Shown here piece by piece: positions 159 through 60,072 of a DNA stretch of 64,000 nucleotides (its first letter is position 1; every line of letters starts with the position of its first letter). This DNA comes from Squalus acanthias (Eukaryota): the NCBI GenBank assembly GCA_030390025.1, contig CM059430.1:72974001-73038000 (forward strand), read 5' to 3'. The notes under the pieces are model-generated. The model was not told the DNA's origin. It was given only the letters and a program-made list of their open reading frames with translations, and searched no databases. Both the position numbers and the translations under genes were made by a program.

Positions 159-520
159 ATAGAATCATAGAATCATGTAGCATTTATCCAATTCCCAATT
201 GAAAGCTACTATTGGATCTGCTTCCATCACCCTACCAGGTACTGCATTCCAGATCATAACAAATCATAGAATTACAGCACAGAAATAGGCCTTTCGGCCC
301 AACCAGTCCATACTGGCATTTATGCTGCCCTTGAGACTCCTCTTCACTTCCTCAACTAAGTCTATCAGAATAATCCTTTATCCCCTTCTCCCTCATAAGC
401 TTATGTAGCTTTCCCTTAAATCCATCCTCACTATTCGCCTCAACGACTACCTGTTGTACAAAGTTCCACATTCTCAGTATTCTCTGTGTAAAGAAGTTTA
501 TTCTGAATTCCCTATTTGAT
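159..520 (-). mobile_element. CR1 LINE 3' end fragments (two tails)
   Basis: catagaatcatagaat tail; minus-strand translation REFRINFFTQRILRMWN...FKGKLHKLM is the CR1 ORF2 C-terminus. Confidence 0.8.
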
Positions 521-523
521 TTC

Positions 524-765
524 TTGCCGAAAGTTGCCTGGGCCCTATGCACTGGAATTCCCTGTCTAAACTTCTCTACCTCTCTACCTCTCTTTCCTCC
601 TATAAGATGCTATTTAAAACCTACCTCTTTCACCAAGCTTTTGGTCATCTGCCCTAATTTCTCCTCTTGTGGTTCGGTGTCAATTTTATTTTCTTATAAT
701 ACTCCTGTGAAGCGCCTACTTTAAAGGCGCTATAAAAATAAAAGTTTAAGTTGTTATTGTTGTTG
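524..765 (+). mobile_element. L2 LINE 3' end fragment
   Basis: aaaacctacctctt...aaaggcgctata...(TTG)n terminus, also seen at 16300-16463 and 38450-38610. Confidence 0.7.
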
Positions 766-3545
766 ACAATCTTAAACTGATGGCGTCTAGATTTGTTGGT
801 TCCCACAAGATTAAACACTCTGTGTTTACTCTATCAAAACCTTTGATAATTTTAAAGACTTCTATTAGGGCACCCCTCAGCCTTCTCTTTGCAAGAGAAA
901 ATAAACCCAGCATGTTCATCCTTTCCTGATTGGTATAACCTCGCAGTTTTGGTGTCATTCTTGTAAATCCTTTTTGCAAGCTCTAAAGTGTCTCCATAGT
1001 CATTTTATAACATGGCAATCAGAATGGTACATAGTACTCCACGTGTGGTCTAACCAAGTATCGGTACAAGTTTAGCATAACTTTTCTACTTTTCAATTCT
1101 ATCCCTCTAGAAATAAAACCCTGTGCTTGGTTTTCTTTTTTATAGCCTTATTAACTTGAGTCAATACTTTTAGTGATATGTGTAATTGTACACCCAGATC
1201 CCTTTGCTGCTCTATCCCACTTAGATGATTATTTTCCAAGTAACATGTGACCACCTTATTTTTCTCACCTAAATGTAATAACTCACGCTTATCTATATTG
1301 AAATTCAGTGGCCAATTGAATGACCATTCTGCAAGTTTATTAATGTCTTGTAATTTGTTGCTATCCTCCTCAGTATTGATTATTCCCCGCCCCCCAATTT
1401 GGTTTCGTCCACAAATGTAAAAATTGTGTTTGGTTCAAAAGTCTAAATCGTTAATTTGCATTGTGAACAATAGTGGTCCCAGCACAGATCCTTGTGTGAA
1501 TTCACTTCCCACCTTCTGCCAATCTGATTAGCTACCCTTTACCTCTACTCAGGGCTTTCTGTCTAGCAGCCATCTAGCTAGCCATTCTTCTACTTCTTCC
1601 CTGAATCTGCATGCTGTGACCTTATCGATTAGTCTATTATGTGGTACTTCATCGAAGGTCTTTTGGAAATCTAGATATATGACATTTACTACATTCCCCT
1701 TCTCTACTCTCTGTGTTACCTCTTCAAAAATTCAATGAGGTTGGTCAAGCAAGACTTAAAATTTTGAAATCCATGCTAAATATTCGTTATTAAATTTTTG
1801 GTTTCTCGGTGATTTTCTATTTTTTCCTTTAGTAGGGATTCGATTACCATTCCTACCCCCACCGATGTATAGCAGATGCATCTATTATACCCTAGACATT
1901 TTCTATCTCTCTTCGTAAATATATGTATGACTTTAGCTATCTGCCAGTCCTCTGGCACTACAACTTTTTTTTACCGAATTAATAAATATGTGTATTAGTG
2001 CCGCTGCTATCTCTTAACCTAAATTCTGTTACAATTGGAGGATGTAATGCATCCCGCCCAGAGGTTTTACCCTCTTTGATTTTGATTAATTTATTAATAG
2101 TTCTCTATTTTTATTTTAAGTGTGTTTATAGCTTTTCTAATCTCATTATCCGAAGTCCTGTACACCTGATCCGTCTTCCTGATAAATGAGGAAGCAAAAT
2201 AATTGCCCTGACATTGCGATCTCCCTGACAGCGTACTCTCAGCGTACGTCGTCGTAATCCTTTTGAAAGGTCCCGCAACTTCTGAGTTTCTGCATGTACT
2301 TGCACATGTGTGAAATCTGGAACTTGCGATGTTTCAATCTAAGGCTTTACAGGTCATCCGAACCACATTGAAAATCAGTATTGCTGTCGTAGATTGGGGC
2401 TATTTGCCAAACAACTGCCCAGAAATTGCCCACGAGACTCTTACAGCTTGTAGAATCAGGCATACAACCTGCTTTCATCAGTTTAACGATGTACATAAGC
2501 ATTACATTAAACATTTACAACTCAAAAATGATGCAGATACACTTTATATTAGTTTCTACAAATATTGTCCCGGATTAAGATGATTAAAATTATTTATTGA
2601 AAAAATAAATGTTTATTGAGTTTGGTGCAATGTATGGACTTTTGAATAAAATTGAAATTCAATGCCTTTATCATCATTAGCATTCTGTAATTTATATAAT
2701 TATTTAGGGATTCCATTGCGTATCATTAGGGGATACCCTTTATAAATAATTGCAATGGAATCCTTCTTTGTGATTTGAGGACTCGGCCTATGTTATTTTA
2801 GATAAGCTTCGGAACTGCCTCCGTCCATGGGATCCGTGGGCCGTTCTGCTGCCGTACAACTGGAGTCACGGCCTTGCAATTCTACGTAGCCTGGGCGCCT
2901 GCAGATAGGCGCGTAAATGTTTTCCAGGTTGGAGGCGTAATCCGGAGGTACACCTCCGACCGCAATATCCAGTCCATCAATTTGTGTTCTGCCATTTTGC
3001 TATCGCTACCTATGATGTTATCCGTCCATCCTTTAGTGGTCCTATTCGCATCGGACTTTCCTTTTTTTTATTTATGTGCCTGTAAAATATTTTTCTATTT
3101 TGTTTCATGTTCCATAATAATTTAATTTCATAGATCCTCCTTTCCTTCCTAATTGATTATTTTGACTTCTCTCCTAATCTCTTTGCATGGTCCCTTATCA
3201 TGCTTTACCCTGCTCCCTTTATCCTTAGTGTACGTTTATTTCCTTGGCCACAATTCTTCTCTTGTGTCTTTATGAATCCATGGTGTTTCAACAGCATTTA
3301 GATTTTTCTTGATTTTTTAAAAATAATGTATTTTTACTGGACTCTGTTGAACACCGTTTTAAATGTTTCCCATTGCTGTTCGACATTGTTTGCTGATATT
3401 GCTGTCAATTTTATTTTCCCAAGATCTATTCTCAACGCCTCAAAATCAGCTTTTTTTCCAATCTATTACCTTGGTCTTTGTCATGCTTATCTCCTTCTCA
3501 ATTATTATCTTCAACCGTATTTTAAAATAACAACTTATTTAATGG
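766..3545 (-). mobile_element. Decayed CR1 LINE ORF2, interrupted by a MITE at 2205-2975
   Basis: Minus-strand fragments LGLFSLAKRRLRGALIEVFKI and PEDWQIAKVIHIFTKRDR with many stops and frameshifts. Confidence 0.85.
2205..2975. mobile_element. Degenerate MITE with AT-rich core inserted in CR1
   Basis: Imperfect termini gccctgacattgcg / cgcaatatccagtcc with att/atc flanks; GC-rich arms around an AT-rich centre; CR1 sequence resumes on both sides. Confidence 0.55.
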
Positions 3546-4920
3546 ACGATTGGGTGACTGCTTCCTCCCTCCCTCATGTTACTTCTCCTCCTTGTCCTAT
3601 TCCTGCTCGTCCACTTCTGCCTCGTCCTTCTCCTGCGGTAGTCTCACAATCCCTGCCGGCAAGGGCTGGGCCCTCATGATGGCCAATTTTTGGAGCATGC
3701 GGCAGACCACCGCAAAATGGGTCACCCGCTCTGGCAAGTTGTGGAGGGCTCCTCCCGAGCGGTCAAGGCAGCAGAACTGTTGCTTCAGTAAACCGATGGT
3801 CTGCACGATGATGTTCCTTGCGGCAGCATGACTCTCATTATATGAGAGCTGGGCACGACACTTGTGGCTGCAGAGGGGAGTCATGAGCCAGGTGGGGAGC
3901 GGATAGCCCGTGTCTCCGAGCAGCCACCCTCGAGCCTGATGTGGTGGCTGCAAGAGTGCCGTCACACCTGTCTTGCGCAGGATGAAGGCAATCGTGGCTT
4001 CTTCCTGGACAGTGGGCATTGGCATTAAGATTTAACTGAAACTGGTCGCACTCCAACTGCACCTGAATTAATAGTAGCCTTTGCAGTTAGGGAAGACCTC
4101 AGGATTGTTATGTGGTGCCTGCAAAGCCACGTAGGTGCAGTCGATGGCGCCGTGCACCATGGGGCAGCCTGCCATCCTGGCTTAGCCAATTGCATGCTCG
4201 TCCTGCTTCTTTCTGTGATTCGGAAGCCAATGTCGTTACTTCCCCTGCTGTAGAGAGCCTCAGTAACCTCCTGGATGCAGCGATGGATGGCAAAGTTTGA
4301 GATGCTAAATATGTCTCCTGTTGCTGACTGGAAGTAACCGCTGGCGAAGAAATTCAGGGCCACAGTGACCTTAACTGCCATTGTTCAGAGCCGTGGTCGC
4401 CGTCGTCAGAGGCTGGAGATCTGGTTGCAGGAGGTTGCAGAGTTCTGCGGACACCTCCTTGGTGAAGCGAAGGCTTCTAATACACTGTTCTTCGCTTATT
4501 TAAAGGTAGTAGAATGCTCTCGGAATACCCTTGGAGCAAGGCCTCCTGGTGAGAGCCCTGAAGGCACTCCTCCTCCCTCTGTGCAAATGTTTCCATATGT
4601 CTCTTTGCCTATGCTCCCTCCACCATAGATCCTGGAGGGTGAAGTGGCATGCCAGTACAGCCCCCATTAATGTTATCAAGTGTAGCACTTCGAATCATTG
4701 AAAAGTAAAAGTAGCTAATTTTCAGTTGCCTGCAGACTCCTGATACAAAAACACCTTGAAATTACTGAATGAACCTGTTGCAGTGGGTGAAACTAACAAA
4801 AAATCACTGCAACTAAACTAACCTGACAGCTGCGAGTGATTACTGATGATCACTTTAAATAAGGTGCCTTGACCAGGCTTCCTGGTGCTGCAAGCCAGCT
4901 CTCCCTGTCGGTGTTAAACA

Positions 4921-5009
4921 AAAATGAGAAGTCGCACAACACCAGGTTATAGTCCAACAGTTTTATTTGAAATCACGAGCTTTCGGAGCGCTGCTCCTTC
5001 GTCAGGTAA
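4921..5009 (-). mobile_element. 89-bp Penelope-like element terminal fragment with 11-bp target-site duplication
   Basis: Flanked by ggtgttaaaca (4910-4920) and ggtgttaacca (5010-5020); minus strand reads CTGACGAAGGAGCAGCGCTCCGAAAGCTCGTG...GGACTATAACCTGGTGTTGTG. Confidence 0.7.
4973..5009 (-). ncRNA. Minimal type I hammerhead ribozyme motif (Penelope type)
   Basis: UUAC-CUGACGA-A-GGAGC(AGC)GCUCC-GAAA-GC-UC-GUGA: CUGANGA and GAAA core boxes, stem II, vestigial palindromic stem III, short stem I. Confidence 0.65.
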
Positions 5010-5093
5010 GGTGTTAACCAAGGCACTGAGGTAAGTGGCGAGAATGAATTTAGCAAATCGAGCGGTCAGTGAGCATTCCACACTCACTGATTC

Positions 5094-6148
5094 CATAGAA
5101 ACATAGGAACATAGAAGATAGGAGCAGGAGTAGGCCATTCGGCCACACAAGCCTGCTCCGCCATTCGATGAGATCATGGCTGATCATCCAGTCTCAGTAC
5201 CCTGTACCTGCCTTCTCCCCATATCCCTTGATACCTTTAGCTTTAAGAAATAAATCTAACTCATTCTTGAATATATTTAATGACTTGGCGTCAACTACCT
5301 TCTGTGGTAGAGAATTCCACTGTTTCACCACTCTGTGGGTGAAGAAATTCTTCCTCATTTCTGTCCTAAATGGCTTACCCTTTATCCTTAGATTTTGACC
5401 CCTGGTTATGGACTGTCCGAACATCAGGAACATTCTTCCTGCATCTAGTTTGTCCAGACCTGTCAGAGTTGTATATGTTTCGAGGTGATCCCCTTTCATT
5501 CTTCTATACTCCAGCGAGTATAAGCCCAATCGACCCAATCTCTCCTCATATTTCATTCCTGCCATCCCAGGTATCAGCCTTGTGAATCTTCGCTGATCTC
5601 CTTCCATGGCAAGAGCATCCTTCCTCAGATAAGTTGAACAAAACTGCACACAGTTCTCAAGGTGTGGTCTCACCAAGGCCCTGCACAACTACAGCAGGAC
5701 TTCCCTGTTCCGATACTCAAACCCTTTCGCTATGAAGGCCAACATACCTTTTGCCTTCTTCACCGCCTGCTGCACCTGCATGCTTACCTTCAGCGACTGG
5801 TGCACAAGGACACCCAGGTCTCGTTGCACTTCCCCTTCGCCCAATCTATTGCTATTCAGATAATAGTCTGCCTTTCTGTTTTTGACACCAAAGTTGATAA
5901 ACTCGCATTTATCCACGTTATATTGCATCTGCCACGCTTCTACCCACTCACCCAACCTGTCGAAATCATCCAGGAGTTTCTCAGTATCCTCCTCGCAGCA
6001 CACACGCCGACCCAGCTTTGTGTCATCTGCAATCTTGGAGATATTACATTTAGTTCCCTTATCTAGATCATTAATGAATATTGTGAATAGCCTGGGTCAA
6101 AGGACCGAACACTGCGGTACCTCACTAGTCACTGCCTGCCACTTGGAA
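5094..6148 (-). mobile_element. 5'-truncated CR1 LINE inserted into the Harbinger remnant
   Basis: ORFs 5194-5688 and 5689-6003 encode the CR1 RT C-terminus (QMQYNVDKC, LVRPHLENCVQF, NFFTHRVVKQWNSLP); catagaaacatagg tail at 5094. Confidence 0.9.
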
Positions 6149-6359
6149 TCCACAATCTACTTGGCGTGGACGTTCCCGGCAATACCTCCTACCGGCGGTG
6201 CTACGGGAGTGGTGGGGGGTGGGGGTGGGGGGCGGGTCGGGGCGGATTTGGCGTGCGGTGCTGGATTTGCCTCGCTCGGCCGATACTGGTCTAGTGCCCC
6301 ATTAGTGCCATCTACTGGCACTAACTGGAGGTGCTAAGGGGACGAATTCGCCCCTCCTC

Positions 6360-6698
6360 TTTCAAAGTAACGTTTACATTTCATAACTTTCCACACAGTG
6401 CACTGTATTTGTTTCGAAGTGGAAATTATGAGTAGTGATTTGGAATCCCACAACAAAAGATAAAATTGTAAGTATTTTAATGGTTGTAGTAATGAAGTAA
6501 TGTAGTAATTTAAATGATTGAAAGGAAATCTGTTTTCTGATTTGAGGACCAGGCCCACGTGATCCCAGGTACGCTTCCGCCCAGGCTGCGTCCCTGAGAT
6601 CCGTGGTCCTCCTACTCATCGGGTCAGTTGGTGCATTTTGTTTTCGCAGGTCATGCGGCATACTCCGGAGGTTCACTGCCAACATCAATTTTTGGCCC
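6360..6698. mobile_element. Partial MITE (AT core plus right arm)
   Basis: Arm ggcccacgtgatcccaggtacgcttcc resembles 30860-30920; ends tcaatttttggccc|att, like the copy ending at 22751. Confidence 0.55.
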
Positions 6699-6699
6699 A

Positions 6700-7520
6700 T
6701 TGTGCACACTGCTGTCCGAGGAGTTTTACCAATTTTTTTAATAGCGGTTCTACTCAGTTTTATTTTTACCGACTTTTTACGCTCTTGTTCTATAACTCTA
6801 ATTATTCGCTCGCCACTTATGTCTTACTATAGTTTAGTCTGCCCTCTGCTCTCCTTTCCTTTTTCGTTCATATATAGGCTTGTTTAATTTTTATAGATAC
6901 CTCCTTACTAGTCTTACTAGTTTAAAGTCTTTGCCAAATTCCTAGTGACTTTTTCCACTAGAACACTGGTCCCATTCCGGTTCAGGGGGAGCCCGTCTTA
7001 TCGGTACAACTCCATCCTGTCCAAGTCCTGGTAAGAAAATGAACCGCTCTTCCCCACTGCAGCCCTTTAGCCACGTGAATCTCTCTGTCTCTATGACAAT
7101 TTCCACTGGTTTGTGTATTAATACTGAGAATATTGCTCTCTAAGTTCTACTATTTAATTTAGCTCCTACCTCCTGATACTCCCTCAGCAGGACTTCCTCT
7201 CTGATCTTACTTATGTTGTTTGTTCCAACATGGACCAAGCAGCTAGATTATCCCTTTCCACATTCCTCTCCAGCCGCCTCAAGATATGCCTTACCCAGCA
7301 GGCAACATAACCTTCGGAACTCTCGTTCATGGCTGCAGAGGACACGACCTATCCCCCTAATTAAAGAATCCCCTGTCACTACCACATGTCTATTCTGTTC
7401 TTTGCCCCCACCACCCCACCTTGGACAGCCTTCTGAGCCACGGAGGCTTGGTCTGCATTGCTTCTGTCCTCCCCACAGTTTTGTCTCCTTGTCCTCACAG
7501 GTAGCATATAAAAAATCTAA
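6700..7520 (-). mobile_element. Decayed CR1 5' region (ORF1 esterase-like part and ORF1/ORF2 junction)
   Basis: Similar to 44250-44950 (cccagcaggcaacataaccttcggaactctcg; ttcaggggggagcccgtc). Confidence 0.65.
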
Positions 7521-7529
7521 GCTCCCCTC

Positions 7530-8765
7530 TGGTTATGTTGCCAATTATCGTAAATCTTCGAACTCTGGTTACCGACCATCCTGTCACTGGAAACAGTTTC
7601 TCATTTAATCTGTAAAACCCTCATTAATTTGAACACCTCTATTGAATCTCCTCTAAACCTGCTCTGCTATTTTTTATTCATTCACGGGATGTGAGCGTCG
7701 CTGGCAAGGCCGGTCTTTATTGCCCATCCCTAATTGCCCTTGTGATGGTGGTGAGCCGCCTTCTTGATCCACTGCAGTCATTGTGGAGAAAGTACTCACG
7801 CAGTGCTGTTAGCGAGGGAGTTCCAGGATTTTATCCCAGCTACAATGAACGATGAAGGAACGGCGATATATTTCCCAGTCAGGATGGTGTGTAACTTGGA
7901 GGGGAATTTGCAGGTGATGATGTTCCCATGCGCCTGCTGCACTCGTCCTTCTAGGTGCTAGAGGTCGTGGGTTTGGGAGGTGCTGCCGAAAAAGTTTTAG
8001 CGAGTTGCTGCAGTGCATCTTGTAAATGGTACACACTGCAGCCATGGTGCGCCGCTGGTGATGATTCTGTGAGTATGAATATGTCAGGCTTTTGCTTGAC
8101 TAGTCTGTGGGACAGCTCTCCCAATTTTGGCAAAAGTCCACAGATGTTAGTGAGGAGGACGTTGCAGGGTGGACTGGGCTGGGTGTGCCATTGATCGTGT
8201 CGGAAACCGGTGCCTAGGTCGATGCCGGTGGTCCGTCCGGTTTCATTCTTATTATTGCTTTTCGTAGCAGTTGTTTATAACTGAGAGGCTTGTTAGGCCA
8301 TTTTAGAGGGCAGTTAAGAGTTGTGGGTATGGAGTCACATTTCGGCCAGACCAGGTAAGGACGGGAGATTTCCTGTCCCTAAAGGACATTAGTGAATCAG
8401 ATGAGTTTTTACGACAAACGGATAGCTTTATGATCACCTTTACTGATACTAGATTTTAATTCCAGATTTATTTAATTCAATTTAATTTTCACATTTCCCA
8501 TGGTGGGATTTGAACTTACCTATCTGAATCATTAATTCAGGCCTCTGGATTACTAGTCCAGTAACATAAACCTCTGTGCTCTAACGAAAACAATCCATGA
8601 TTATCTATTCTCTCCACATAACTGAATTCACTCAGTCCTGGTATCATTCCTGTATTCTCTTCTGCACCCTTCAACGCCTCGACGTTCTTCAAAAGGTGTG
8701 ATGCCCATAATTTGACACAACAGCTGAGGTCTAATCAGCAATTTATAAAAGTTTAGCATAACTTC
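7530..8765 (-). mobile_element. CR1 3' fragment split by the insertion at 7668-8580
   Basis: tttgaacacctctattgaatctcctctaaacctgctctgct...ctaacgaaaacaat joins across the insert into CR1 ORF2 C-terminal sequence. Confidence 0.6.
7668..8580 (-). mobile_element. Internally deleted LINE (CR1/L2 group) with a tRNA-like SINE-type 5' head
   Basis: Head with B-box-like GTTCAAATCC (~8504-8513); APE N-terminus PKLGELSHRLVKQKPDIFILTES fused to C-terminus AAVCTIYKMHCSN; 3' end shared with 31110-32065. Confidence 0.7.
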
Positions 8766-8814
8766 AGAAACATGAGAAAATTAATCGTTTTTAATAATAA
8801 AGAAACGAATAATT

Positions 8815-9160
8815 CTGTCGAGATCGCCTTGAAGCTTCTTCACATCCTCTTCACAACTGACACTGCCACCTAGCTTTGTATCATCAGCAAATTTGGAAAT
8901 GTTACAGTTAGTCCCCTCATCCAAATCATTGATATAGATTGTGAATAGCTGGGGCCCAAGCACCGATCCTTGCGGTACCCCACTAGTCATAGCCTGCCAT
9001 CCTGAAGAAGACCCGTTTATCCCTACTCTTTGTTTTCTGTCAGTTAACCAATTCTCAATCCATGCTAGTATATTACCCTCAATTGCAGGTGCCCTAATTT
9101 TGTTCACCAACCTCTTGTGTGGGACCTAATCGAAGGCCTTTTGAAAATCCAAATACACAT
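8815..9160 (-). mobile_element. CR1 RT core fragment
   Basis: [22 protein letters not shown]...KFADDTK. Confidence 0.9.
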
Positions 9161-9464
9161 TTTCCTCCCTAAATATTAATATTTAATTGAACGTTAATTT
9201 TATTATTGTTCGTGTGATGTGGTAATTTGATAAAATTAAATAAAATCCTTAAATAAAATCTAAAATAAGACAACTTTGCAATTCAATACTTTTATTTAAT
9301 ACTTTATAAAACCGTAGCAAATATTCACGTGTTGCAGTGCTTTTCAAACCAAGTCAGTGCCTAACATTCCGGGGACATATTAATAAATACTTTTTTCAAT
9401 ACAGGGCAAAAAGTTTGATTCAGAGAGAGACACGGTCATTGAAGAGGCTACTATCGCACTACTT

Positions 9465-10165
9465 TCCTGATATGGACCCCATCAGCCTACAATCCTTATA
9501 TGGACCCCATCACCCTACAATACTTATATGGACCACATCACCCCACAATCCTTATATGAACCCTATCACCAAACAATCCTTATATGGACCCCATCAACCT
9601 ACCATACCAACATGGAAGCCATCACCCTACAATCCATATATGGACCTCATCACACTACAATCCTTATATGGACCCCAGCACCCTACAGTATTTATATGGA
9701 TCACATCACCCTACATTACTGATAAGGACCCCATAAACCTACAATCCTTATATGGACCCCATCACCGTACAACACTTATATGGAACCCATCGCCCTACAT
9801 TCCTGATAGGGTCCCATCAACCTACATACCTGATATGGACCCCATCACAATGCATTGCAGATATGGACCCCATCACCTTTCATTCCTGATTTGGTCTCCA
9901 TCAGCCTACAATGCTTTTAAGGATCCCATCTCCCTACATTCCTGATAGGGATCCCATCACCCTACATTCCTGATATGGACCCCATCACCCTACATTGCAG
10001 ATATGGACCCCATCACCTTACATTCCTGATATGGTCTCCCTTCAATCTACAATCCTTGTATGGACCCCATCACTCTACATTCCTGATATGGGCACCATCA
10101 TCCTACAATTCTGATATGGCGCCCCTTGGCTCTGTATTCCTGTTATGGGCCACAATCACAGCATT
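9465..10165. repeat. 28-bp minisatellite, ~25 degenerate copies
   Basis: Consensus about CCTTATATGGACCCCATCACCCTACAAT in direct tandem. Confidence 0.95.
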
Positions 10166-10382
10166 CATAATAAGGAGTCTATCAATTTTATGATCATCAA
10201 CGAATTCCTTTCAGTCAATCATATTGTGTTAGACAAGGTGTGTTAGACAATTACAGATTGGTGAACGGCGACTTGCACAGAGCAAAATACAGTGGCTCCT
10301 GGTTCTATATAATGCAAAATGAACGTCTCGACATCTACTTCTTTAACCCCATCAGCACAGCCCTTGCACTGCTTCCGTGATA

Positions 10383-10453
10383 TTAACTCGTTGCTTTTCC
10401 AGAGTTGGTTAAATCGGGTGCAACTGATGTCAGGTTCTCAGCTGGTTTTATGG
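10383..10453 (-). other. Candidate terminal exon of gene A (now 3' UTR; vestigial cytoplasmic coding frame)
   Basis: Strong acceptor tctttcttctttttaatag| at 10454; phase-1 frame reads AIKPAENLTSVAPDLTNSGKATS*; possible AATAAA at 9296-9291. Confidence 0.45.
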
Positions 10454-10739
10454 CTATTAAAAAGAAGAAAGATTTCAGAATGAACCGGTGCTTAAATAAA
10501 GTGAGCACTAAATCCCACAGCAGTATTTCCAGTTAGTTTGAATTAATCTGCTGGCGAGACTCATATTGCCAGGATACAGTTTTCTGGATCAAACCAGGGA
10601 TTAAGAGATCTGGTTTCATTGATGTTTGATTTTCCACTATGTAAAGAAAAAATCTCCCGTAAAAGTGATCACATTAACAGTTCTGAAATATGCACAACAG
10701 CTACAAATAGAAGAAGCTGCATCAGAGGCTGGAAATAGA

Positions 10740-13700
10740 GTAAACGAACAACTCTCGAGGGTAAATATCGCTGGATTATTGCCCGAGACACGTGCAAATT
10801 GGCATAGAAGCAGACAGATCAGGAAGATTAACACGTGGCTAAAGGGCTGGTGTGGAAAGAGGGGTTCCTTTTCATGGGGCACTGGCACCAGTTCTGGGAC
10901 AGGAAGGAGCTGTAGCGATGGGACGGGCTCCACCTGAACGGTGATGGGACCCGTGTCCTCACGGATAGGGTAAATAGGGAGGTGGCAAAGGCTTTAAACT
11001 AGTTAGATTGGGGGATGGATCTACAAGAAACGTAACCAGCCTAAATATAAACAAAACAGGAAAAGAGAGCATAGAAAACAATATATATGGGAGAACATTG
11101 ATTGCAAGCGAATAAATAGACCTATAGACCATTAGTCTAAAAAGATAGCTAACCATAAAGAGAGAGGAAATCCGATTAAAAATGAGTTAAACTGTCTGTA
11201 CAGCAATGCACACATTGTCCGTAATAAAACAGGGGAGCGGGAGGCAATCATGCGTTGCGAGGAACCAGACATAGTCGGGATTACTGACACATGGCTACAG
11301 AAAAATCAGGACTGGGAATTAAAAATGGAAGGGTATAACATATTTAGCAATCATGGGGAGGTAAAAAGGGAAAAAAGGGAAGGTGGAGAAGCTGTTCTTA
11401 TTAGGGATAACATAATGGCAGTAGAGAAAATTATGCAAGATAAAAATAGAAACCGTATGGATAGAGATAAAAGATAATAAATGATCAATCACGCTAATAG
11501 GCGTACTCTACAGAGCACCTAATAGTGGAAGGTAGGTGGAGGAAGGAATATGCAGACAAATTAGAGTAATGAGAAAAAATCATAGAATAATAATCATGGG
11601 GGATTTCCACTACCCCGATATTAATTGGACAGAAGAGGTAGCTAAAGGGGATAAGGGACTGGAATTCCTTTAATGTGTACAGGACTCCTTTCTAACTCGA
11701 TATTTAAAAAGCCCGACAAGGGAGGATTCGCTATTGGATCTTGCAAAGCGGAATGAACCAGAGCAGATAAGAAAAGTAAAAGTAAGGGAACATATAGGCA
11801 ATAGTGACCATAATAATAATACGCTTTAAGATGAAAATTGAGAAGAGCATAAGTATGACGAAAACCATCTTAACAGATTGGAGAAAAGTTGATTTTGAGA
11901 GGCTGAGAATAGAACTTGGGAAAAAAATGGACAACAATATTGGCAAACAACGATGTAGACCGGCAATGGGAAACATTTAAAACGTTGTTCAACAGAGTGC
12001 TTTAGAAATATATTCCGCTAAAAAGAAAGAACAAACAAAATAGTAATGAGACTCCAATGATGAATAAAGCCATAAGGGGACAATTGATGGTAAGGAAAGA
12101 TTGGAATAGGGCCATTAAAGGATAGAAAGGATAATACCACAGATAACGATAGAGAGATGGCAGAAATATTAAATAATTATTTTGCTTCAGTATTTACCAG
12201 GGAGATAGAACAGGTGGACATGACATTGGATGATGAGATAAGTGCATTTAACATAAAAAGAGGGGATATATTATATAAATTTGTCAAACTCAAAGAGGGT
12301 AAAACCCCTGATGCGGATGGATTGCATCCACGCATTTTAAAAGAATCTAGGGATAGCAGAGGCATTACTGGGCATATTTTGTAATTCGTTCGAAAAAGTT
12401 GCAGTGCCAGAGGACTGGTGGATAGCTAACGAAATACCGATATTTAAGAAGGTTGATAGAACATGTCCAGGCAATTATAGGCCAGTCAGCTTAACATTAG
12501 TTGTCGGAAAAATAATGCAAACCCTAATGAAGGAGAAAATAGAAGTACGTCTAAAAATCGCAAATATAATAATGAATAGTCAGCATGGATTTCAAAAGGG
12601 AAAGCCTTGCTTGACCAACTTTATTGAATTTTTTGAATAGGTAACAGCGAGAGCAGCTAAAGGTAATGCAGTAGATGTAATTTATCTGGATTTTCAAAAG
12701 GCCTTCGATAAAGTACACCATAATAGACGAATCAATAAGTTCAGAGAATGCGGAGTCGGGAGACAAGTAGCAGAATGGATTGCTGGCCGGCTTCAGGACG
12801 GAAAGCAGAGAGTAGGAGTAAAGGGTAGCTATTCACAGTGGCAGAAGGTGGGTAGTGGTGTTCCACAAGGATCAGTGCTGGGACCATTGCTGTTCACAAC
12901 TTACATTAACGATTTAGAATTCAGAATCAAAAACACAAATTCTAAATTTGCGGATGCCACCAAATTGCGGTGTGGGGGGGGGGGGGGGGGGCAGGGTGGA
13001 TACTCAATACTGAGGAGGACAGCAACAAATTACAGGAGTACGTCAATAAACTTGCAGAATGTGTATATAATTGGCAATTGAAGTTCAACACGGATAATTG
13101 CATGGTATTACATTTTGGGTAAGAATAGGGAGGTCACTTATTACTTGGAGGGTGCGAGTCTAGGTGGGGTAGAGGAACAAAGGGATCTCGGAGTGCAAAT
13201 ACACAAATCATAAAAAGTTGCATCACAGGTTAGCAAGGCCATAAAAAAAACAAACCAAGCACGAGGGTTTATTTCTAGAGTTATAGAATTGAAAAGTAGC
13301 GAAGTTAGCTAAACCTGTATCGAAACTTGTTTAGACCACACTTAGAGTACTGCATAAAGTTCTGGTCGCCTTATTATAAAAATGATATAGAGGAACTGGA
13401 GAAGGTGCAGAGAAGATTTTCAAGGATGATACCAGAAATGGGAGTGTATACATATCCGGAAAGGATGAAAAGGCTGGGTCTCTTTTCTCTTGAAAAAAGA
13501 AGGCTGAGCGGTGACCTAATAGAGGGCTTTAAAATTATGAAAGCTTTTGATAGAGTGGATACAGAGAGAGTTTGTCCAATTGTGGGAAAGAGCATAACTG
13601 GTAGCCATCAACATAAGATATTCACCAAGAAATCCAATAGAGAATTCAGGAGAAACTTCCTTACCCAGAGATTGGTGAGAATGTGGAACTCGCTACCACA

Positions 13701-13900
13701 GGGAGTAGTTGAAGCGAATAGTATAGATGCATTTAAGGGGAGGCTCGACAAGCATATGTGGAAAAAGGGAATAGAGGGTTCTGCTGATAGATTTAGACGA
13801 GGAAAGACGGGAGGAGGCTCGTGTGGAGCATAAACGCCGGCATGGCATGGTTGGGCCGAATGGCCTGTTTCTGTGCCATATATCCTATGTAATCCTATGT
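10740..13900 (+). mobile_element. Near-complete decayed CR1 LINE (ORF1 end, APE and RT, 3' tail)
   Basis: [44 protein letters not shown]; tail atcctatgtaatcctatgtaa. Confidence 0.92.
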
Positions 13901-13919
13901 AACTGCTCAGAAACACAGG

Positions 13920-14220
13920 ATTACATCTGTAGCTCATCGGGGCACGGTTTATACTGAGCCATATGGCAGGAAGGTACCAGATTGCATTACCATTCTGCTG
14001 AGGTGGCTGAAGACAGCCGGAGCAGGTGTGTACAATTGGCCCTGGTGGCCCTGAGATGAGGAAGGACAGCAATCAATCGCTTCCCTTGTCCTGAGTGTGG
14101 CCACTGTTAAGTGCATACTTTTCATAGGGTTAAGATCAGTTATTGCTCATCTGTGACGTACAAAGTTGCTTGACCCTCGGGCCGTCCCTGTCTGGCATCA
14201 CCCATGAAGAATGCACATTT
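13920..14220 (+). mobile_element. Possible old degenerate tRNA-derived SINE
   Basis: Head tgtagctcatcgg resembles an A box; body tacaattggccctggtggccctgag resembles repeats I associate with shark genomes; too decayed to classify. Confidence 0.3.
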
Positions 14221-14241
14221 AGTTAGAATGCAGATCCTTAC

Positions 14242-14288
14242 CAGCGCCTTGAATCAGGATTGCAGCAATTGGCAGATCTTGTTGAAGT
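14242..14288 (-). other. Candidate 47-nt exon of gene A downstream of the TM exon (non-coding because of the upstream TAA)
   Basis: tttcgactag| acceptor and CTG|GTAAG donor; enters in phase 2 (matching the TM exon end), exits in phase 1 (matching exon 10453); open frame RLQQDLPIAAILIQGA. Confidence 0.5.
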
Positions 14289-14639
14289 CTAGTCGAAACA
14301 CTCAACACACACATACACATTAACAGACAGACGCACACTCACACATATAATCCTACACAAATGTATTCCTGGTCTGACGGAGTTTAATTAATTTGTTCAA
14401 TAAAAACAAATATAAACTTTGAAATAAAAATTATTTCTCTGGTAACGGCCCGATCAGCACATGAGCATTTCAAACATAATGAGGGGTCATCGGGTATCAG
14501 AGCTTTTGTTAAGCGTACGTGTTGGGTGATTATATTCAGAACAGCAAACCAGCGAAAATTCAAACTCTGGAAATGAACTGCGTTCAGAAAATTATCGAGA
14601 ATGTTATTGAAATTCCTGACTCAGTGACAGACAGTGAAT

Positions 14640-15015
14640 TGGTTCTGGCTAAACATCAGTGAGTGATTGAGCGTAGGAAGTGGGCGTGTAATATTGAATC
14701 ATAGATGCTTATGGCCACACATCAGTGAGTAAGAGTTGGATGGAGTGTGTAAAGCAATTGACAGATGCGTGTGTGTGTGTAATGACAGTGAGACTTTGCT
14801 GTGGATATCGTACAGTGAGAAAGATGTTGTCGGTGTGTAACAGTTAGTAAGAGATTATTCTGAGTGTATAACAGTCAGTGAGATGTGTGTGAGCGTGTGT
14901 GTGTGTGTAACAGGGAATATGAGATGAGTGTGGATGTGTAACACTGAGTGAGAGTAGGGTTTCGGTGGAAACAATGAGTGAGAGATGGATTTGAGTGTAT
15001 AACAGCGAGAGACAT
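14640..15015. repeat. Degenerate GT/GA-rich low-complexity tandem region
   Basis: Recurrent gtgtaacagtgagtgagagatg-like units and (TG)n runs. Confidence 0.6.
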
Positions 15016-15019
15016 TTTC

Positions 15020-16463
15020 ACACTCCAGTATGATTTACTCTTCCTGCTTTGAAACCTTCGATGAGTATGTAAGTGGAGAATGAATGTGGAGCAGCAATGT
15101 ACCGGGAAGCAATCTGTCCCGACATGTTTAAATCCCTCCAGTCAGGTTTCCACCCCTGCCACACTAACGAAACGGCTCTCATCAAAGTCACAAATGACAT
15201 CCTTTGTGACTATGACAAAGGTGAACTATCCCTCATCGTCCTTCTCGAATAGTCTGCAGCGTTTGACATGTTTGACGACTCCATATACCTCCAGCGCCTC
15301 TCCACCATCGTCCAGCTGGGTGGGACTACACTCGCCTGGTTCCATTCCTATCTTTCTAATCGTAGCCAGAGAAACACCTTCAATGGCTTATCTTCCACCT
15401 GTCGCATCGTTACCTCTGGTGTCCCCCAAAGATCTATCGTTGGCCCCCCTCCTATTTCTCATCTACATGCTTCCACTTGGCGACATCATCCGAAAACACA
15501 GCATTAGTTTCCACATGTACGCTGACGACACCCAGCTCTAGCTCACCACCGATTCTCTTGACCCCTTACGGTCTCTAAATAGTCAGACTTCTTGTCCAAC
15601 ATCCAGTACTGGATGAGCATAAATTTTCTCCAATTAAATCTTGGGAAGACTGAAGCCATTGTTTTCGGTCCCCGCCACAAACTCCACAACTCTTCCTAAC
15701 ATCTGCTTGAGACTGAACCGCACTGTTTGCAACCTTAGTGTCGTATTTGACCCTGAAATGAGCTTCTGATCAGTTAAACGCGGCCTAACTAAGACCGCCT
15801 ATTTCCATCTCCATAACATCGCCCGTCTCCACCGCTGCCTCAGCTCATCCACTGCTGAACCCTCATCCATGCCTTTGTTACCTCTAGACTTGACTATTCA
15901 AATGCACTTCTGGCTGGCCTTCCACGTTCCACCCTATGTCATGTTGAGGTCATCCAAAACTCTGCTGCCCGTGTCCTAACTCGCACCAATTCCCGTTCAC
16001 CCATCACCCCTGTACTCACTGGCCTACATTGGTCCCCGGTTAAGCAATGTCTCAATTTCAAAAGTCTCATTCTTGCATTCAAATCCGTCCATGGCCTCGC
16101 TCCTCCCTATCTCTGTAATTCCTCCAGTCCTGCAACCCCCCGAGATAGCTGCGTTCCTCTAATTCTGCCCTCTAGAACATCTCTGATTATAACAGCTCAA
16201 GCATTGGTGGCCGTGCCATCAATTGCCTAGGCATTAAACTCTTGAATTCACTCAATAATCCTCTCTGCGTCTCTACCCTCTTTCCTCCTTTAAGACTCTC
16301 TTTAAGACCTACCTCTTTGACTAAACTTTTGCTCAGGTTCATTAATTTTTCATTATGTAGCGCGGTGTAAATTTTTTGTCTTATAATACTACTGTGAAGC
16401 TCCTTGTGACGTTTTACTATGTCAAAGGCGCTATATAAATACAAGTTGTTGTTGCTGCTGTTG
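15020..16463 (+). mobile_element. 5'-truncated L2 LINE
   Basis: [48 protein letters not shown]; 3' end ggcgctatataaatacaagttgttg. Confidence 0.9.
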
Positions 16464-16565
16464 ACATCACAAGTCACAAAAGAAGGATTCGATAATTTTG
16501 TTTGCTGTGTCCTATAACTTTCAACCCGCGACGATAATCTGAATCAAGAAATCAATGTCTTACCT

Positions 16566-16678
16566 TTAAAACGGGACTGATTTCAAATTATCCACAATGA
16601 GTGTGGTCCCCACTAGAATTACTATTAAACCCAACATGAAACGGCACAGGTTGATGGTTTGGAATCGGTCAGGAGAGG
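16566..16678 (-). CDS. Gene A exon 4: transmembrane segment and short tail (exon extends to 16564)
   Basis: ttgctacccaccag| acceptor; phase-1 frame ASPDRFQTINLCRFMLGLIVILVGTTLIVDNLKSVPF*; AG|GTAAG donor; 115 nt and colinear with the gene B TM exon. Confidence 0.85.
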
Positions 16679-24385: not shown

Positions 24386-24691
24386 CCAAATTATAGAAAG
24401 TGTAGCTGACATTGGCTGGAGTCTGGAGAGAGACATGAGACACTTGACAGGTGTAAACCGTCCCGCTCTCCACAGGCTCTGCATCATTCAGGTAGCTAGA
24501 AGCCTCATACAGTCCCGTTGGGTTCGGCCGTTTGATTGGTTCCATCCCGGACCCAATTACTGCTCCATTTTTGTACCAAGTGATTTTCAGATCATCCGGG
24601 AAAAATGCATTCGTTTTACAAACGAGAGTCAGGGGAACCACTGATCCACTCTCATACCGTATGGGGATCAGTTGGAGAGGAGTCGGAGCGT
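24386..24691 (-). CDS. Gene A exon 3: Ig C1-set domain
   Basis: ttatttttccag| acceptor and G|GTAAG donor, 306 nt, phase 1/1; DAPTPLQL...LTLVCKTNAFFPDDLKITWYKNG...YTCQVSHVSLQTP has the C1 hallmarks (C, FxP, W, YxCxVxH). Confidence 0.95.
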
Positions 24692-26463: not shown

Positions 26464-26530
26464 CTGTGCAGAAAATCCCCAGCGTGGCACAATACAGAAA
26501 TACGATATTCCGAACCAGAACTAAACCCAT
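26464..26530 (-). CDS. Gene A exon 1: signal peptide
   Basis: ATG at 26530, MGLVLVRNIVFLYCATLGIFCT, CAG|GTATT phase-1 donor; 183-nt intron to the V exon. Confidence 0.85.
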
Positions 26531-27221: not shown

Positions 27222-29225
27222 ATCACAGAAACATAGAATGCTACAGCACAGGAGGAGGTCATTCGGCCCACGTGCCCTTCCCGGCTCTTTTAAAGAGCTA
27301 TCCAATTAATCACATTCCCCTATTCTTTCCCGATAGCCCTTTTAAAGTTATTATTGAATCTGTTTCCACCACCCTTTCAGTCAGTGCATTCCAGATCATA
27401 ACAACTCGCTGCATCATTTTCTTCGTCATGTCGCCTCTGGTTCTTTTTCAAATTACCTTAAATCTGTATCCTCGGGTTACCGACCCTTCTGCCACTGGAA
27501 ACAGTTTCTTCTCATTTATTCTATCAACACCATTAAAGATTTTGAACACCTTGATCAAATCTCCCCTTAGCCTAACCTGCTCGAAGGAGAACAGGTCCAT
27601 TTTTTCTAGTCTCTCCAAGTAACTAAAGTCTTTCATCCCTGGTAACATTCTAGTAAATCTCCTCTCCATTTTCTCTAAGGCTTTAACATCTTTCATAACG
27701 TCTGCTGCTCAGAATTGGCCGAAATATTCCAGCCGGGGACTGACCAATGTTTCATAAAGTTTTCGCACAACTTTCTAGCTTTTGCACTCTGTGCCTCTAT
27801 TTATAAAGCCGAGGATCCTGCATTTTAGCAGACTTCTCAACTCGTCCTGCCACATTCAAAGACTTGTGTACGTACACCCCCTCGTCTATATCTTCCTGCA
27901 CCCCCTTTAAAATTATGCCATTTCGTTTATAATGCCTCCTTTCATTTTTCCTACCAAAATGAATCACTTCACACTATTCTGCGTTAAATTTAATCGGCCA
28001 TGTGTTCGCCCATTTCGCCAGTCTCTCTATGTCCTCTTGAAGTCTGATACTATCGTGCTCGCTGTGTACTACATTTCCAAGTTCTGCATCATCAGCTTTG
28101 CTCCTCGCTCTTCTTCTCACTAATAAGGGGTTTATAGTAAAAACCCAGCAATACAACAGCTCCTTTTCTGTCCCTGCACTCCAATCACATAGATTCCATC
28201 TTTGAATCCTCAAGTATATCGTCTCTCTGTAGAACTGTAATATTATCCTTGATCAATACACTCACCCTCTCTTTACATAGAAACATAGAAACATAGAATC
28301 TAGGAGCAGGAGTAGGCCATTCGGCCCGTCGAGCCTGCTCCACCATTCAATACGATCATGGCTGATCATCCAAATCCAGTACCCTGTCCCTGCTTTAATC
28401 CCCACAGTACACATATCCCACCCTACCCCCGTAACCCCACGTATTTAATTCCCCCTAACATATCCCATCCTATCCCCATAACCCCACATATTTAATCCCC
28501 CCCTAACACTAAGGGTCAATTTATCATAGCCAAATCAACCTAACCCGCACATTTTTGGACTGTGGGAGGAAACCGGAGCACCCGGAGGAAACCCACGCAG
28601 ACACGGGGAGAATGTGCAAACTCCACACAGACAGTCACCCGAGGTCAGATTAGAACCCTTGTCCCTGGCGCTGTGAGGCACCAGTGCTAACCACTATGCC
28701 ACCGTGTTGCCCTTCCCTGTCCCTCCTGAATATATTGTTACCAGAAATATTTAGTTACCATTGCAGCCCATTTTAAAGCTAGGCCTCCGTTATAGCCACT
28801 ATATTACAACCCAATGTGGAAACTTGCGCCTGTAACTCTTCCACGTTATATGTGGCGCTGCAAGCAGTATCATACATGCTTTCCTGCACCATGCTTGTCT
28901 GCTTTGCTTGTTCCCTCCATCTAATTACTGCTCTTTCTAAAGAATGTTTGCACTATTGATGTTTGACCTTCCTAGTTTTCTATAAACATTGTCTTTCCTC
29001 TCTGTTGCTGGGGCCTGGTGTCAAATTAGTTTAAACATCTCCCCCTGTCAAATTATTTTAAACACTCCACCGCGAGAATATTGGCTTCAGCCCGGTTCAG
29101 GTGAAAGCCATCCGTCTTAGACAGGTCCGTCCTGCCCAAAACTTGTCCAGATGCCCCGCAAATCTGAAGACATCCCTCCTGCACCACTGCTCCAGATATG
29201 CATTCACCTGCACTCTCATTCGAGG
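27222..29225 (-). mobile_element. Internally deleted CR1 LINE carrying a SINE insertion
   Basis: cacagaaacatagaa tail; RLRGDLIKVFKI; APE/ORF1 remnants (DGFHLNRAEANILA). Confidence 0.8.
28276..28712 (-). mobile_element. Full-length tRNA-derived V-SINE (HE1-like) with CR1-derived 3' tail
   Basis: A box TGGCATAGTGG and B-box-like GGTTCTAATC; V-domain GTGTGGAGTTTGCACATTCTCCCCGTGTCTGCGTGGGTTTCCTCCGGGTGCTCCGGTTTCCTCCCAC; CR1-like tail with (TTTCTATG)n. Confidence 0.9.
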
Positions 29226-30303
29226 GACTTGGAGATAGTGCAGGAAGGTGGAGTTGATGTAGCAGATCAGCCATTTCAATTGACTGTTAGATAACCTGCA
29301 ACTAGTGCCAGATTTCAGAAGAGAAAACTTCACTAAGATGGTTGACGATTTGGAACGGGTACATTGGCTAGCCGTACTGGGTGGTGATGAACCCGATGTA
29401 GAACTCAAATTGAAAGGTTTTAAGAACAAGATAAAAAATGCGGAAAACCACTATTAACTCCATGCCAAAAGAAGATAATGTGGGAAGAAAAATCCAAATG
29501 GCTGACTGGTTATGCACAAAGACAAATAAGTTGCCAACAGAAATTGCATTTAATACTCAACTAAAGAGAGTACAGAGAATAACTGAAGAAAATAAAGGCT
29601 GCTACTGGAACAGCTAAAAAGGATAATGGAAAAAAAAATATCGTAAACATTTGTGGAACTAATGGGAAAAAACTTTTTCAGTTATGTGAAGAGTCACAGA
29701 ACTGTCAAGGACTGTAGCGCGCCATTGAAGAATGTTCAAGGACAGGTTACAAGGGAACCACTGGCAATGGCAGGAAGATTAAATGAATACTTTGCACCGG
29801 TCTTCGCTCTTGAAGTTGATGCTCGCCTATTAGAATTTAATAATGTTACCAACAAAACTAATAATATTAACATAGATGAACATATTGTTTTAGAAAGAAT
29901 TAAGAACTTGAAAATAGATAGAGCAGCCGGGCTGGATGATATCCACCCGAGGATCGTCAGGGGGATGGGATATGTGCTGCTTATTTGTAGCTCGTATTTG
30001 TAATAGTGCACTGCACTTTGGAATGATTCCCATAGACCGGAAGGAAGCTAATGTAGTCCCCATATTTAAAAAAGGTGACAAGACAGATCTGGGTAACTAT
30101 AGATCAATTAGTTTAACATCAGTAATAGGTAAGATGCCTGAGGCAAACATCAGAGATGCAATATATGAATGCTTGAATAGAGAGGCTCATATCAGGGATA
30201 CTCAACATTGTAATCCTAAAAAGGAGGTAATGTCTCACAAATCACATTGTATTTTTTGTAGAAGTTACAAAAGTTCGAGAATGAGAGGAGCCCAGTAGAA
30301 ATT

Positions 30304-31040
30304 TGGCCGGATATCCCGATCCCTACGGGTGTGTACGAGCTGTGTACACACCCGTAGGGACATCGGAAATGCCGGTCTCAGGCATGCACAGTGCATGCGC
30401 TAAAAACCGGCATTTCCGATCTGTCAAGAATGCTCTTGACAGATCGGACGCCTGCTCTGGATAAGGGCCTCGAGGGCGGACATTTCCGCTTTCTGGAGAC
30501 CTATCGCGCGCAGAAAACCCTTAGAATTCTTACGCTTGGTAAAGGCTTGCTTTTACCACGATAAGAGTTGAAAAAAGTAAAAAAAACTTTTTTTTCATTC
30601 ATTTATCATTTAAAAATACTTTAAAAAAGGTAAGTTTATTTTTAGCCCCGTAAAAAAACTTGAATTACTTATTTCAAAAAATTAAATTTTTGTTTGAAAT
30701 ATAAAATTTATTGTAATTTCAACTAATTTTAAAAATGTGATGTTTCTATTAATTTATTTAATGTTTTAAAGTGTTTTTGGGTTGATCTCCATTCATATAT
30801 TTGACAGATTTTTCTGTCAAGTGTATGAAGGGAGATTCCCTTCTATGATTGGCTCCTCATGGCCCACAGCATCCCAGGGACGCTTGCGAACCGCATGTGC
30901 CCCTGGGATATGTAGGCCCTGCGCACTTGCAGTTGGAGAGACACAGCATCGGAACTATATGCACCTCGGGAGCCCTCAGGTAAGTGCGTAGATTATTTCC
31001 ATGTCGGAGGCCTCTGCACGCGGGAAGCCTCCGATCGGAA
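30304..31040. mobile_element. MITE with nested hairpins; right TIR truncated
   Basis: att|tggccggatatcccgatccctacgggtgtgtac...; reverse-orientation relative of 33175-33901 and 56524-57256. Confidence 0.8.
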
Positions 31041-31109
31041 AATTAGACTTCCAGAAAGCTTTGGATAAGGTACGGCACAAAATGCTTCTCTTTAAGATTG
31101 AAGCCTCTG

Positions 31110-33901: not shown

Positions 33902-33904
33902 AAT

Positions 33905-38610: not shown

Positions 38611-38684
38611 ACATGGAGTTGTATTATATAATGTAAAGCAGCCCGCTTTATTGGCAGCCCATCCGCCACATTTTTTGTAACAAA

Positions 38685-56005: not shown

Positions 56006-56120
56006 CTGCAGAAGTTATCTGGTTTAATGTGGTTGAGGATGATCATCATTAGTAGAATAATTACCAATATCCCCACGCTGGATCGATAAATCAGGTGGAA
56101 TGGGAAGACAGCGTGATAAC
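56006..56120 (-). CDS. Gene B transmembrane exon
   Basis: ccttttccag| acceptor and CAG|GTAAG donor, 115 nt, phase 1/2; GYHAVFPFHLIYRSSVGILVIILLMMIILNHIKPDNFC. Confidence 0.88.
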
Positions 56121-57515: not shown

Positions 57516-57812
57516 CATCTTTGTAGCTGGTGTAGATGACACTGGCTGGAATTAGCAGAGAAACATGCGACACTTCACAGGTATAAAGTACCCCGCTCTG
57601 GACAGGATGTGTCTCTTCTAAAGAGCTGGAAACTTCATACAGTCCCTCCTCATTTAAATGTTGTACCGTTCCAAATCCAGACATAAGTTCGAATACCATC
57701 TTTATGCCAAGTGAGTTTAAAGTCCTTCGGGTAAAATCCGGCCGTTCTGCACTGGAGGTTGAGAAAAGAAGGCGAAACTCCTTCAGATGCTTTGGGGAGA
57801 ATCGTCAGTGGA
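57516..57812 (-). pseudogene. Gene B Ig C1-set exon, disrupted; first ~10 nt and acceptor lie in the gap
   Basis: LNLQCRTAGFYPKDFKLTWHKDG, then one extra base near 57694, then FELMSG...YTCEVSHVSL; expected donor reads G|ATATT. Confidence 0.8.
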
Positions 57813-59336: not shown

Positions 59337-59648
59337 CAGATACAGCCAGTTGTGCACCAGTTGCGTTTCCTATAGATTTTTCCTGATATGTCACTGCACA
59401 GTAATACATTCCGGCGTCCAATATATTCACATTCAGAATGTGAAAGTTGCTAGAGCTTCTCTTTGTTTGGAACACTTTCCCACTGTCTGGTTGTAAGTAT
59501 CTGTTGTACCCGTGTCTCCACCAGGACACCATAATTTCTCCGAGCTCTTGATAAAGCGGGAAAGTGCAATAGAAAGAAACATTTGAACCAATGAGCGTGA
59601 TCTTTCGTTCATTGAGCTGAGTTACTTTGGCCGATGTTCCAAGAAACA
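59337..59648 (-). CDS. Gene B exon 2: end of signal peptide and Ig V-set domain with J-like G-strand
   Basis: ttttttgacag| acceptor and G|GTATG donor, 312 nt, phase 1/1; KVTQ, NVSFYC, VSWWR, ILNVNILDAGMYYCAV, GNATGAQLAVS. Confidence 0.95.
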
Positions 59649-60017: not shown

Positions 60018-60072
60018 CTGGAGAAAGAATGCCCAGGATGAACATGCGCCGCAGGACATCACCCACAACCAT
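60018..60072 (-). CDS. Gene B exon 1: signal peptide
   Basis: MVVGDVLRRMFILGILSP, CAG|GTAAA phase-1 donor; joins VFLGTSA/KVTQ; an in-frame upstream ATG exists at 60144. Confidence 0.8.

Follow-up and report, generated by a model that had tools for sequence, protein, structure and literature searches.

The window, by which we mean the whole 64,000-nucleotide stretch C6:72974001-73038000 of the 3.7-Gb Squalus acanthias genome, encodes two similar peptides with an arginine near the start of a predicted transmembrane (TM) segment. The question raised by this locus is whether such an Arg marks activating receptors that are coupled to adaptor chains in the membrane, as was proposed in a previous sequence-only reading. 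Both peptides proved to be parts of real exons on the minus strand, running from position 16679 downwards (gene A) and from position 56121 downwards (gene B), and the gapless alignment reported for them was reproduced. In addition to the shared residues F6, R13, G17, K33 and F37 that had been listed, V20, I21 and I28 are common to both, which amounts to 8 identities in 36 positions. Upon shuffling of the gene B peptide, 8 identities were obtained in 0.4% of 10,000 trials.

Gene A has an intact V-C1-TM structure

The structure of gene A was assigned as follows (window coordinates).

26464..26530, minus strand: leader exon with ATG, 22 codons and a phase-1 GT donor; a counterpart precedes the paralogous V exon L194
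25960..26280, minus strand: V-set exon with a J-like end (Pfam V-set, E 1e-10; splice sites; subfamily alignment)
24386..24691, minus strand: C1-set exon (Pfam C1-set, E 1e-11; splice sites)
16564..16678, minus strand: TM exon with stalk, NLCR motif, 16-residue hydrophobic core, Asp, 7-residue tail, stop and GT donor
16641..16643, minus strand: Arg codon (Arg244 in the 268-residue frame)
16590..16592, minus strand: Asp codon (Asp261) at the inner TM end, 17 residues past the Arg
16566..16568, minus strand: stop codon TAA within the TM exon

Joined together, the four exons encode a protein of 268 residues consisting of leader, V, C1 and TM segments, with zero internal stops and with GT/AG splice sites in phase 1 throughout; an intron of 7.7 kb separates the C1 exon from the TM exon. 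The TM exon is bounded by AG and GT, is entered in phase 1 and has its stop codon 2 nt ahead of the donor. This in-exon stop was considered as a lesion and rejected, since the same codon ends 7 of the 9 TM exons from the TM-exon search and the Heptranchias protein P0018 ends at the equivalent position with the same tail residues, which indicates that the stop is natural. In the V domain, the first canonical Ig cysteine (B-strand) is replaced by Gly, and an additional Cys is present in the G strand ('DGCG'). The missing Cys was likewise rejected as a lesion, both changes being common to 5/5 aligned members of the V subfamily of gene A (L192-L196). In the structural model (pLDDT 73), the G-strand Cys faces the F-strand Cys across the hairpin, and a non-canonical F-G disulfide is therefore possible. 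A search for a 3′ UTR exon of gene A found none. As to expression, RNA data sets gave no listing for the V-C1 stretch, and the three same-species contig sets used as a check did not cover the TM exon. The Arg anchor of this intact receptor gene is conserved, and its tail measures 7 residues.

Gene B is probably a pseudogene

The corresponding parts of gene B were located further along the window.

60018..60072, minus strand: probable leader exon, the sole candidate of the leader scan, without paralogue confirmation
59337..59648, minus strand: V-set exon whose frame is open; 90% identity with the V exon at C6:73.186 Mb
57519..57812, minus strand: visible part of the C1 exon (alignment to paralogue L160; split tblastn hits)
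56006..56120, minus strand: TM exon (LIYR ... NHIK); codon 56085-56083 is the Arg, and the frame stays open up to a phase-2 donor

The gene B TM exon also has AG/GT ends and is entered in phase 1. The start and acceptor of its C1 exon are hidden under N, and the assessment concerns the visible part, in which one additional base near 57691 causes a frameshift relative to paralogue L160; the donor reads AT where L160 has GT. With two separate lesions in C1, a pseudogene is likelier than an assembly error. Gene B is thus probably a pseudogene carrying the same TM module as gene A, and the previous view of gene B as a working adaptor-coupled receptor was not sustained: the frameshift and the dead donor led us to reject it as independent proof of such a receptor. 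A homologue search with the gene B V exon gave 0/26 candidates. The next gene upstream (L032 and L054, C6:73048173-73051514) combines a frameshifted C1 with the lack of a V hit and a TM in which the Arg is changed to Gly, and is a probable pseudogene.

Genes A and B belong to a large family on C6

What the sequence-only reading had missed is the main context, genes of this type being one half of a large paired-receptor family. A search with the gene A C1 domain gave at least 123 matches, of which 120 are located on C6 at 57-77 Mb; this number is a lower bound, as 150 of 580 candidates were scored. All homologues of the family that were found outside this genome are from cartilaginous fish. For a census of TM exons, a contiguous region of 264 kb around the window was surveyed as a whole; for each of the 116 matches located elsewhere, the following 10 kb were taken, and no charged residue was required. 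Eight of these 10-kb stretches contained no TM exon and three repeated the exon of a neighbour, which left 105 TM exons: 18 of the gene A/B type (hereafter module exons), 22 of an uncharged type with Arg at the same column and 65 without Arg there, 5 of which have Arg one place further. The 264-kb region contributed another 6 module exons and 1 uncharged exon, giving totals of 24 module and 66 uncharged exons. Tandem C1 exons before a single TM exon were observed at C6:61814295/61817586, 68148844/68152761 and 75616874/75620547; these loci are possibly V-C1-C1 (SIRP-like) members or local duplications.

The transmembrane exon is a conserved module

The module exons (n = 24) share a fixed arrangement of residues around the Arg, which is present in 23/24. 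A small residue is found at +4 (23/24), Ile at +8 (24/24), Asp or Glu at +17, His at +18 and Lys at +20 (20/24 each), and the gap between the Arg and position +17 always comprises 16 residues, with no Lys inside this core. Gene B has Asn rather than an acidic residue at +17. The sole loss of the Arg among the 24 exons is the change to Gly in the L032/L054 gene, where C1 is frameshifted and a V hit is lacking. Asn at -3 is restricted to the gene A subclade (7/24). A DYT motif was found neither in gene A nor as a column pattern across the module exons, some B-type exons starting with DY. Cys at -1, as in the NLCR of gene A, occurs in just 5/24 exons, and a family dimer site was rejected; the proposed role of this Cys in dimerisation remains a guess.

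Next to this pattern, the position of the Arg relative to the membrane was assessed. By a rough hydrophobicity scale, the best window of 19-23 residues holds the Arg position in 20/24 module exons and begins just past the Arg in the other 4 (three B-type exons and one with Asp at -1). The 16 residues between the Arg and position +17 are too short to span the bilayer unaided, and in the AlphaFold model of P0018 (mean pLDDT 90) the helix at 230-255 includes Arg235, starting 5 residues earlier. These results bear out the claim that the Arg lies near the start of the TM. Conservation within the module is periodic, with a helical moment 14-25 degrees off the Arg (p about 0.003, both with the full set of exons and with 10 subclade representatives). 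Conservation on the Arg side of the helix is as expected of a binding face.

The survey of Arg conservation that had been suggested was positive not only among the paralogues but also in other species. Among 36 homologous proteins, 9 records from five other shark species (Heptranchias perlo, Chiloscyllium plagiosum, C. punctatum, Scyliorhinus torazame and Carcharodon carcharias) bear the module, all with the Arg. Heptranchias has both an A type (P0018, 27/36 identical to A) and a B type (P0015, 26/36 identical to B). The Asn of an NxxR motif is present in gene A, P0018 and P0008 and absent from gene B (LIYR), so that the NxxR context holds for gene A and fails for gene B. The Arg-anchor TM of gene A is a real, conserved feature. 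Among the ray and chimaera records retrieved, the module was found in none, from which its absence from these groups does not follow. Two ray members, P0022 (Pristis) and P0023 (Hemitrygon), group in C1 with the B-type genes; their TM has another Arg context (WIVRG) and no Asp-His end.

No ITIM exons were detected downstream of module exons

The tails of genes A and B had been described as lacking an ITIM. An iterated profile of the family's own ITIM exons, run downstream of the TM exons, gave no match downstream of either gene in the 264-kb region, in agreement with this description; the only two matches in this region belong to an uncharged-TM gene at C6:72.96 Mb. Over the whole census, an ITIM exon was detected downstream of 0/24 module TMs (0/19 where 4 kb or more of sequence followed) and of 33/66 uncharged TMs (Fisher p 3e-6 for 0/24 and 9e-6 for 0/19, uncorrected for kinship). 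Since the other 33/66 uncharged TMs were likewise without an ITIM exon in their 10-kb stretches, a missing match is imperfect evidence. Several module members read through past the TM exon, and tail exons were not found for these.

Ectodomains and signalling ends show a pattern of recombination

Trees were made of the TM exons and of the C1 domains. In the DNA tree of 110 TM exons (duplicates, L150 and L179 excluded; Arg codon retained), the 24 module exons form one side of a branch (98/86), a grouping that is partly circular as the class is itself defined by TM features. In the tree of 130 C1 domains (98 columns, quick method; short hits, TM-less loci and P0024 excluded), the 30 module rows are scattered, with 21 changes needed, at least 11 of them forced by starred branches, and module rows often adjoin uncharged twins in mixed sister pairs. 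Twins with opposite TMs and tails were also found in two other sharks: the ectodomains of P0018 and P0026 are identical in 171/191 positions (89.5%), compared with 8/34 in their TMs, and those of P0008 and P0017 in 153/170 positions (90%). Gene A is itself a mosaic, its V being 85% identical to the V of an ITIM-exon gene at C6:73.41 Mb and its C1 being closest to other genes. In gene B, the V is 90% identical to that of a gene with an A-type TM (at C6:73.186 Mb, as listed above), and the C1 is 85% identical to the C1 of an ITIM gene. From these comparisons, the family has the pattern of paired receptors in which ectodomains and signalling ends have been recombined. The TM exon, for its part, acts like an ancient module which recombination within the cluster has placed on many different ectodomains.

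Arginine was also gained in the uncharged lineage

According to the TM tree, the Arg arose at least 6 times inside the uncharged TM-exon lineage, and 22 exons of this lineage have it at the place of the module Arg. At C6:61.9-62.7 Mb, a clade of ten genes was noted (L091, L092, L098, L099, L101, L102, L108, L109, L111 and L112), in which a TM of the uncharged type has acquired the Arg and the first ITIM exon is degraded: an ITIM remnant with a stop just 5′ of the Tyr is present in 7/10, and the acceptor AG is gone in 5/5 of the remnants inspected. This clade recalls, by analogy, a KIR-like switch from inhibitory to activating receptors; activating KIRs originated from inhibitory ones, as stated in PMC6557307. 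Three genes at C6:72.79-72.90 Mb (L135, L136 and L138) have Arg in the TM and kept their ITIM exons, and the Mustelus protein P0021 combines a TM Arg with an ITIM tail; all four are candidates for dual-function receptors. Since L135, L136 and L138 retain their ITIM exons, the Arg at this place does not by itself mean 'activating only', and alone it is not diagnostic of an activating receptor.

Coupling to FcR-gamma or CD3-zeta is the favoured explanation

We consider it probable that the gene A-type genes are activating members of a paired-receptor family and couple to FcR-gamma or CD3-zeta in the membrane. The genome contains an FcR-gamma-like TM exon on C1222 and a CD3-zeta-like TM exon on C5, each with the Asp of a DxIL motif. 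The Arg of the module would pair with the TM Asp of an FcR-gamma and/or CD3-zeta dimer, binding of a ligand to the V domain would cluster the receptor-adaptor complex, and the ITAMs of the adaptor would then signal in opposition to the ITIM-bearing twins. There is precedent in several papers: the TM Arg of mammalian NKp46 and NKp30 pairs with an adaptor Asp (PMC6514059); FcR-gamma partners combine an Arg in an NxxR motif with DYT and with an acidic residue at the C-terminal end of the TM (PMC6557307); frog NxxR TMs have their tail on the TM exon and need FcR-gamma, or are helped by it, for surface expression (PMC2413239); and 49-50 NxxR-type TM exons have been reported for Xenopus (PMC4536121). 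Measured against this NxxR module, gene A has the Arg, the Asn, the acidic residue and the tail, but not the DYT motif. With Asn at -3 in just 7/24 exons and no fixed DYT, the match of the shark exons to the mammalian and frog module is partial. A complex prediction of the gene A TM with two FcR-gamma TM exons scored 0.11 against a mark of 0.34 and, with its controls not folded, speaks neither for nor against the coupling. Searches of TM profiles against the PDB matched no FcR-gamma-coupled receptor and gave either a weak match to HLA-DQ alpha (E 0.09 or worse) or none. The search for the DAP10 family was blank, as was its control search.

Other explanations have to be weighed against coupling to FcR-gamma or CD3-zeta. 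Conceivably, the Arg serves just to position the helix at the outer face of the membrane. The proteins with short tails would then not signal but act as decoys, adhesion molecules or ligands, in the manner of SIRP-gamma or B7-H6. We regard this as unlikely. The depth of the Arg, 3-6 residues inside the predicted TM or just outside it in 4/24 exons, would suit such an anchor, and so would the ectodomain, for which SIRP-gamma (E 2e-13) and B7-H6 (E 1e-12) are matches of about equal quality. However, surface anchoring would require neither a single conserved side of the helix aligned with the Arg nor the preference for Arg over Lys seen in 23/24 exons, the single exception being the Gly of the frameshifted-C1 gene. 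It also seems rather improbable, slightly more so than surface anchoring, that the receptors are activating but have another partner, be it DAP12 or DAP10, a CD3-epsilon/delta/gamma dimer like that used by antigen receptors, or an unknown chain bound through both the Arg and the inner Asp/His. The 17/24 module exons without the Asn of NxxR speak for this, as does the V(J)-C1-TM plan, which is that of antigen receptor chains; moreover, Foldseek with the P0018 model retrieved Ig light chains and TCR chains. On the other hand, an outer Arg together with an inner acid is the pattern of FcR-gamma partners, whereas Lys is that of DAP12 partners, according to PMC6557307 and PMC6514059.

The damage seen around gene A raises one more explanation, namely that the locus is a decaying remnant in which neither gene A nor gene B makes a receptor. 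Gene B carries its two lesions, the next gene upstream has both a frameshifted C1 and the Arg-to-Gly change, and the V of gene A is without the first Ig Cys. Yet the four exons of gene A are open and in phase, the missing Cys is a property of 5/5 aligned subfamily members, and annotated proteins of five other species have the same TM; we consider a remnant very improbable. Coupling of the gene A-type genes to FcR-gamma or CD3-zeta thus remains our preferred reading, and gene A together with the two adaptor genes is directly testable in a cell line.

Relation to known receptor systems

Mammals, birds and frogs are well known to have receptors in activating and inhibitory pairs. The plan of SIRPs is V-C1-C1, and the activating SIRP-beta uses a central Lys with DAP12; B7-H6 is a ligand, which binds NKp30. 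The regions of these families are marked by NSFL1C for SIRP, RPS13 for B7-H6 and TTYH1 for the LRC. In this genome, two loci with the SEP domain that marks NSFL1C were found, on C8 and C11 and not on C6, a third having possibly been missed; RPS13 matches are on C8, C9 and C10, and Tweety (TTYH1) matches on C18, C24 and C2143, with none of either on C6. The ectodomain is about equally close to SIRP-gamma (the best PDB match of P0002), to B7-H6 (over both domains) and to Ig chains; its look-alikes in the Atlas are SIRP-like, tapasin-related and light-chain-like, and Foldseek with the P0018 model gave TM-scores of 0.33-0.37, which are uninformative on family. The ectodomain had been called SIRP/B7-H6-like. 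Similarity to both is indeed found, but Ig chains are about equally close and membership in either family does not follow. The shark genes have one C1 and no central Lys, and the markers of all three regions were matched off C6; we have not filed the family under SIRP, B7-H6 or the LRC.

With SIRPs, the shark genes share a V with a J-like end, a C1-set domain, and paired ITIM and short-tailed forms; they differ in that genes A and B and their homologues have one C1, and in that the Arg is at the outer TM end, with no central Lys. B7-H6 (NCR3LG1) has in common with them an ectodomain of V plus constant domain (E 1e-12), and several homologues bear this name by automatic annotation, but its marker RPS13 maps off C6. 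LRC receptors of the LILR/KIR type have C2-type Ig domains, whereas genes A and B have a V-set and a C1-set domain, and C6 has no Tweety match. In the TM, the closest likeness is to the NxxR module of LILRA, NKp46/NCR1, GPVI, Fc-alpha-RI, OSCAR and TARM1 and of the Xenopus XFL TM1 and SLAM-like proteins, as far as it is described in the accessible parts of PMC6557307, PMC2413239 and PMC4536121: an outer Arg, an inner acid and a tiny tail on the TM exon, one TM type being reused by many ectodomains beside uncharged ITIM forms, with gene A having N-x-x-R itself. The differences are the Asn in 7/24 shark exons, the lack of a fixed DYT and an ectodomain of V plus C1 in place of C2/FcR-type domains. 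In those parts of the three papers, the NxxR-type TMs come from mammals, birds and frogs, with no mention of sharks. In plan, the family also resembles the PRARP and other non-rearranging VJ-C1 genes that are discussed in the context of UrIg and NKp30 (PMC10751288, PMC12227049; accessible text), which have a single-exon VJ followed by C1, UrIg differing in its several C domains. Further non-rearranging VJ genes are named in PMC12227049, PMC10751288 and PMC11599192, and the available portions of PMC12227049 and PMC10751288 contain no paired family with an Arg TM. No description of the shark V-C1 family was found in the literature, key subscription papers lying outside the search, so that a prior description is possible.

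If the favoured explanation is true, sharks possess a cluster of paired receptors that is very large and follows the VJ-C1 plan of antigen receptors, and the Arg/FcR-gamma type of anchor dates back to cartilaginous fish. The same cluster would then have taken two routes to an activating receptor, one by an old, swappable TM exon and the other by fresh Gly-to-Arg changes with loss of the ITIM exon. A much bolder reading, which we offer as a speculation and would not expect to hold in full, is that these more than 100 non-rearranging V(J)-C1 receptors, with an FcR-gamma/CD3-zeta-coupling TM exon homologous to the LILR/NKp46 NxxR module and shuffled since before the main shark orders split, and with repeated KIR-like conversions of inhibitory genes, might be the missing large NK/myeloid paired-receptor system of sharks and, at the same time, a present-day model for a precursor of antigen receptors that was germline-encoded and zeta-coupled.

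Repeats in the window

The remainder of the window consists largely of repeats. At positions 1-15900, 27400-47200 and elsewhere, both strands hold mostly what we take to be remains of LINE frames for reverse transcriptase/endonuclease, and two overlapping frames at 3600-4384 (minus strand) resemble a broken Harbinger-type transposase. LINE-type repeats in the intergenic and intronic DNA could drive the exon swapping within the cluster.
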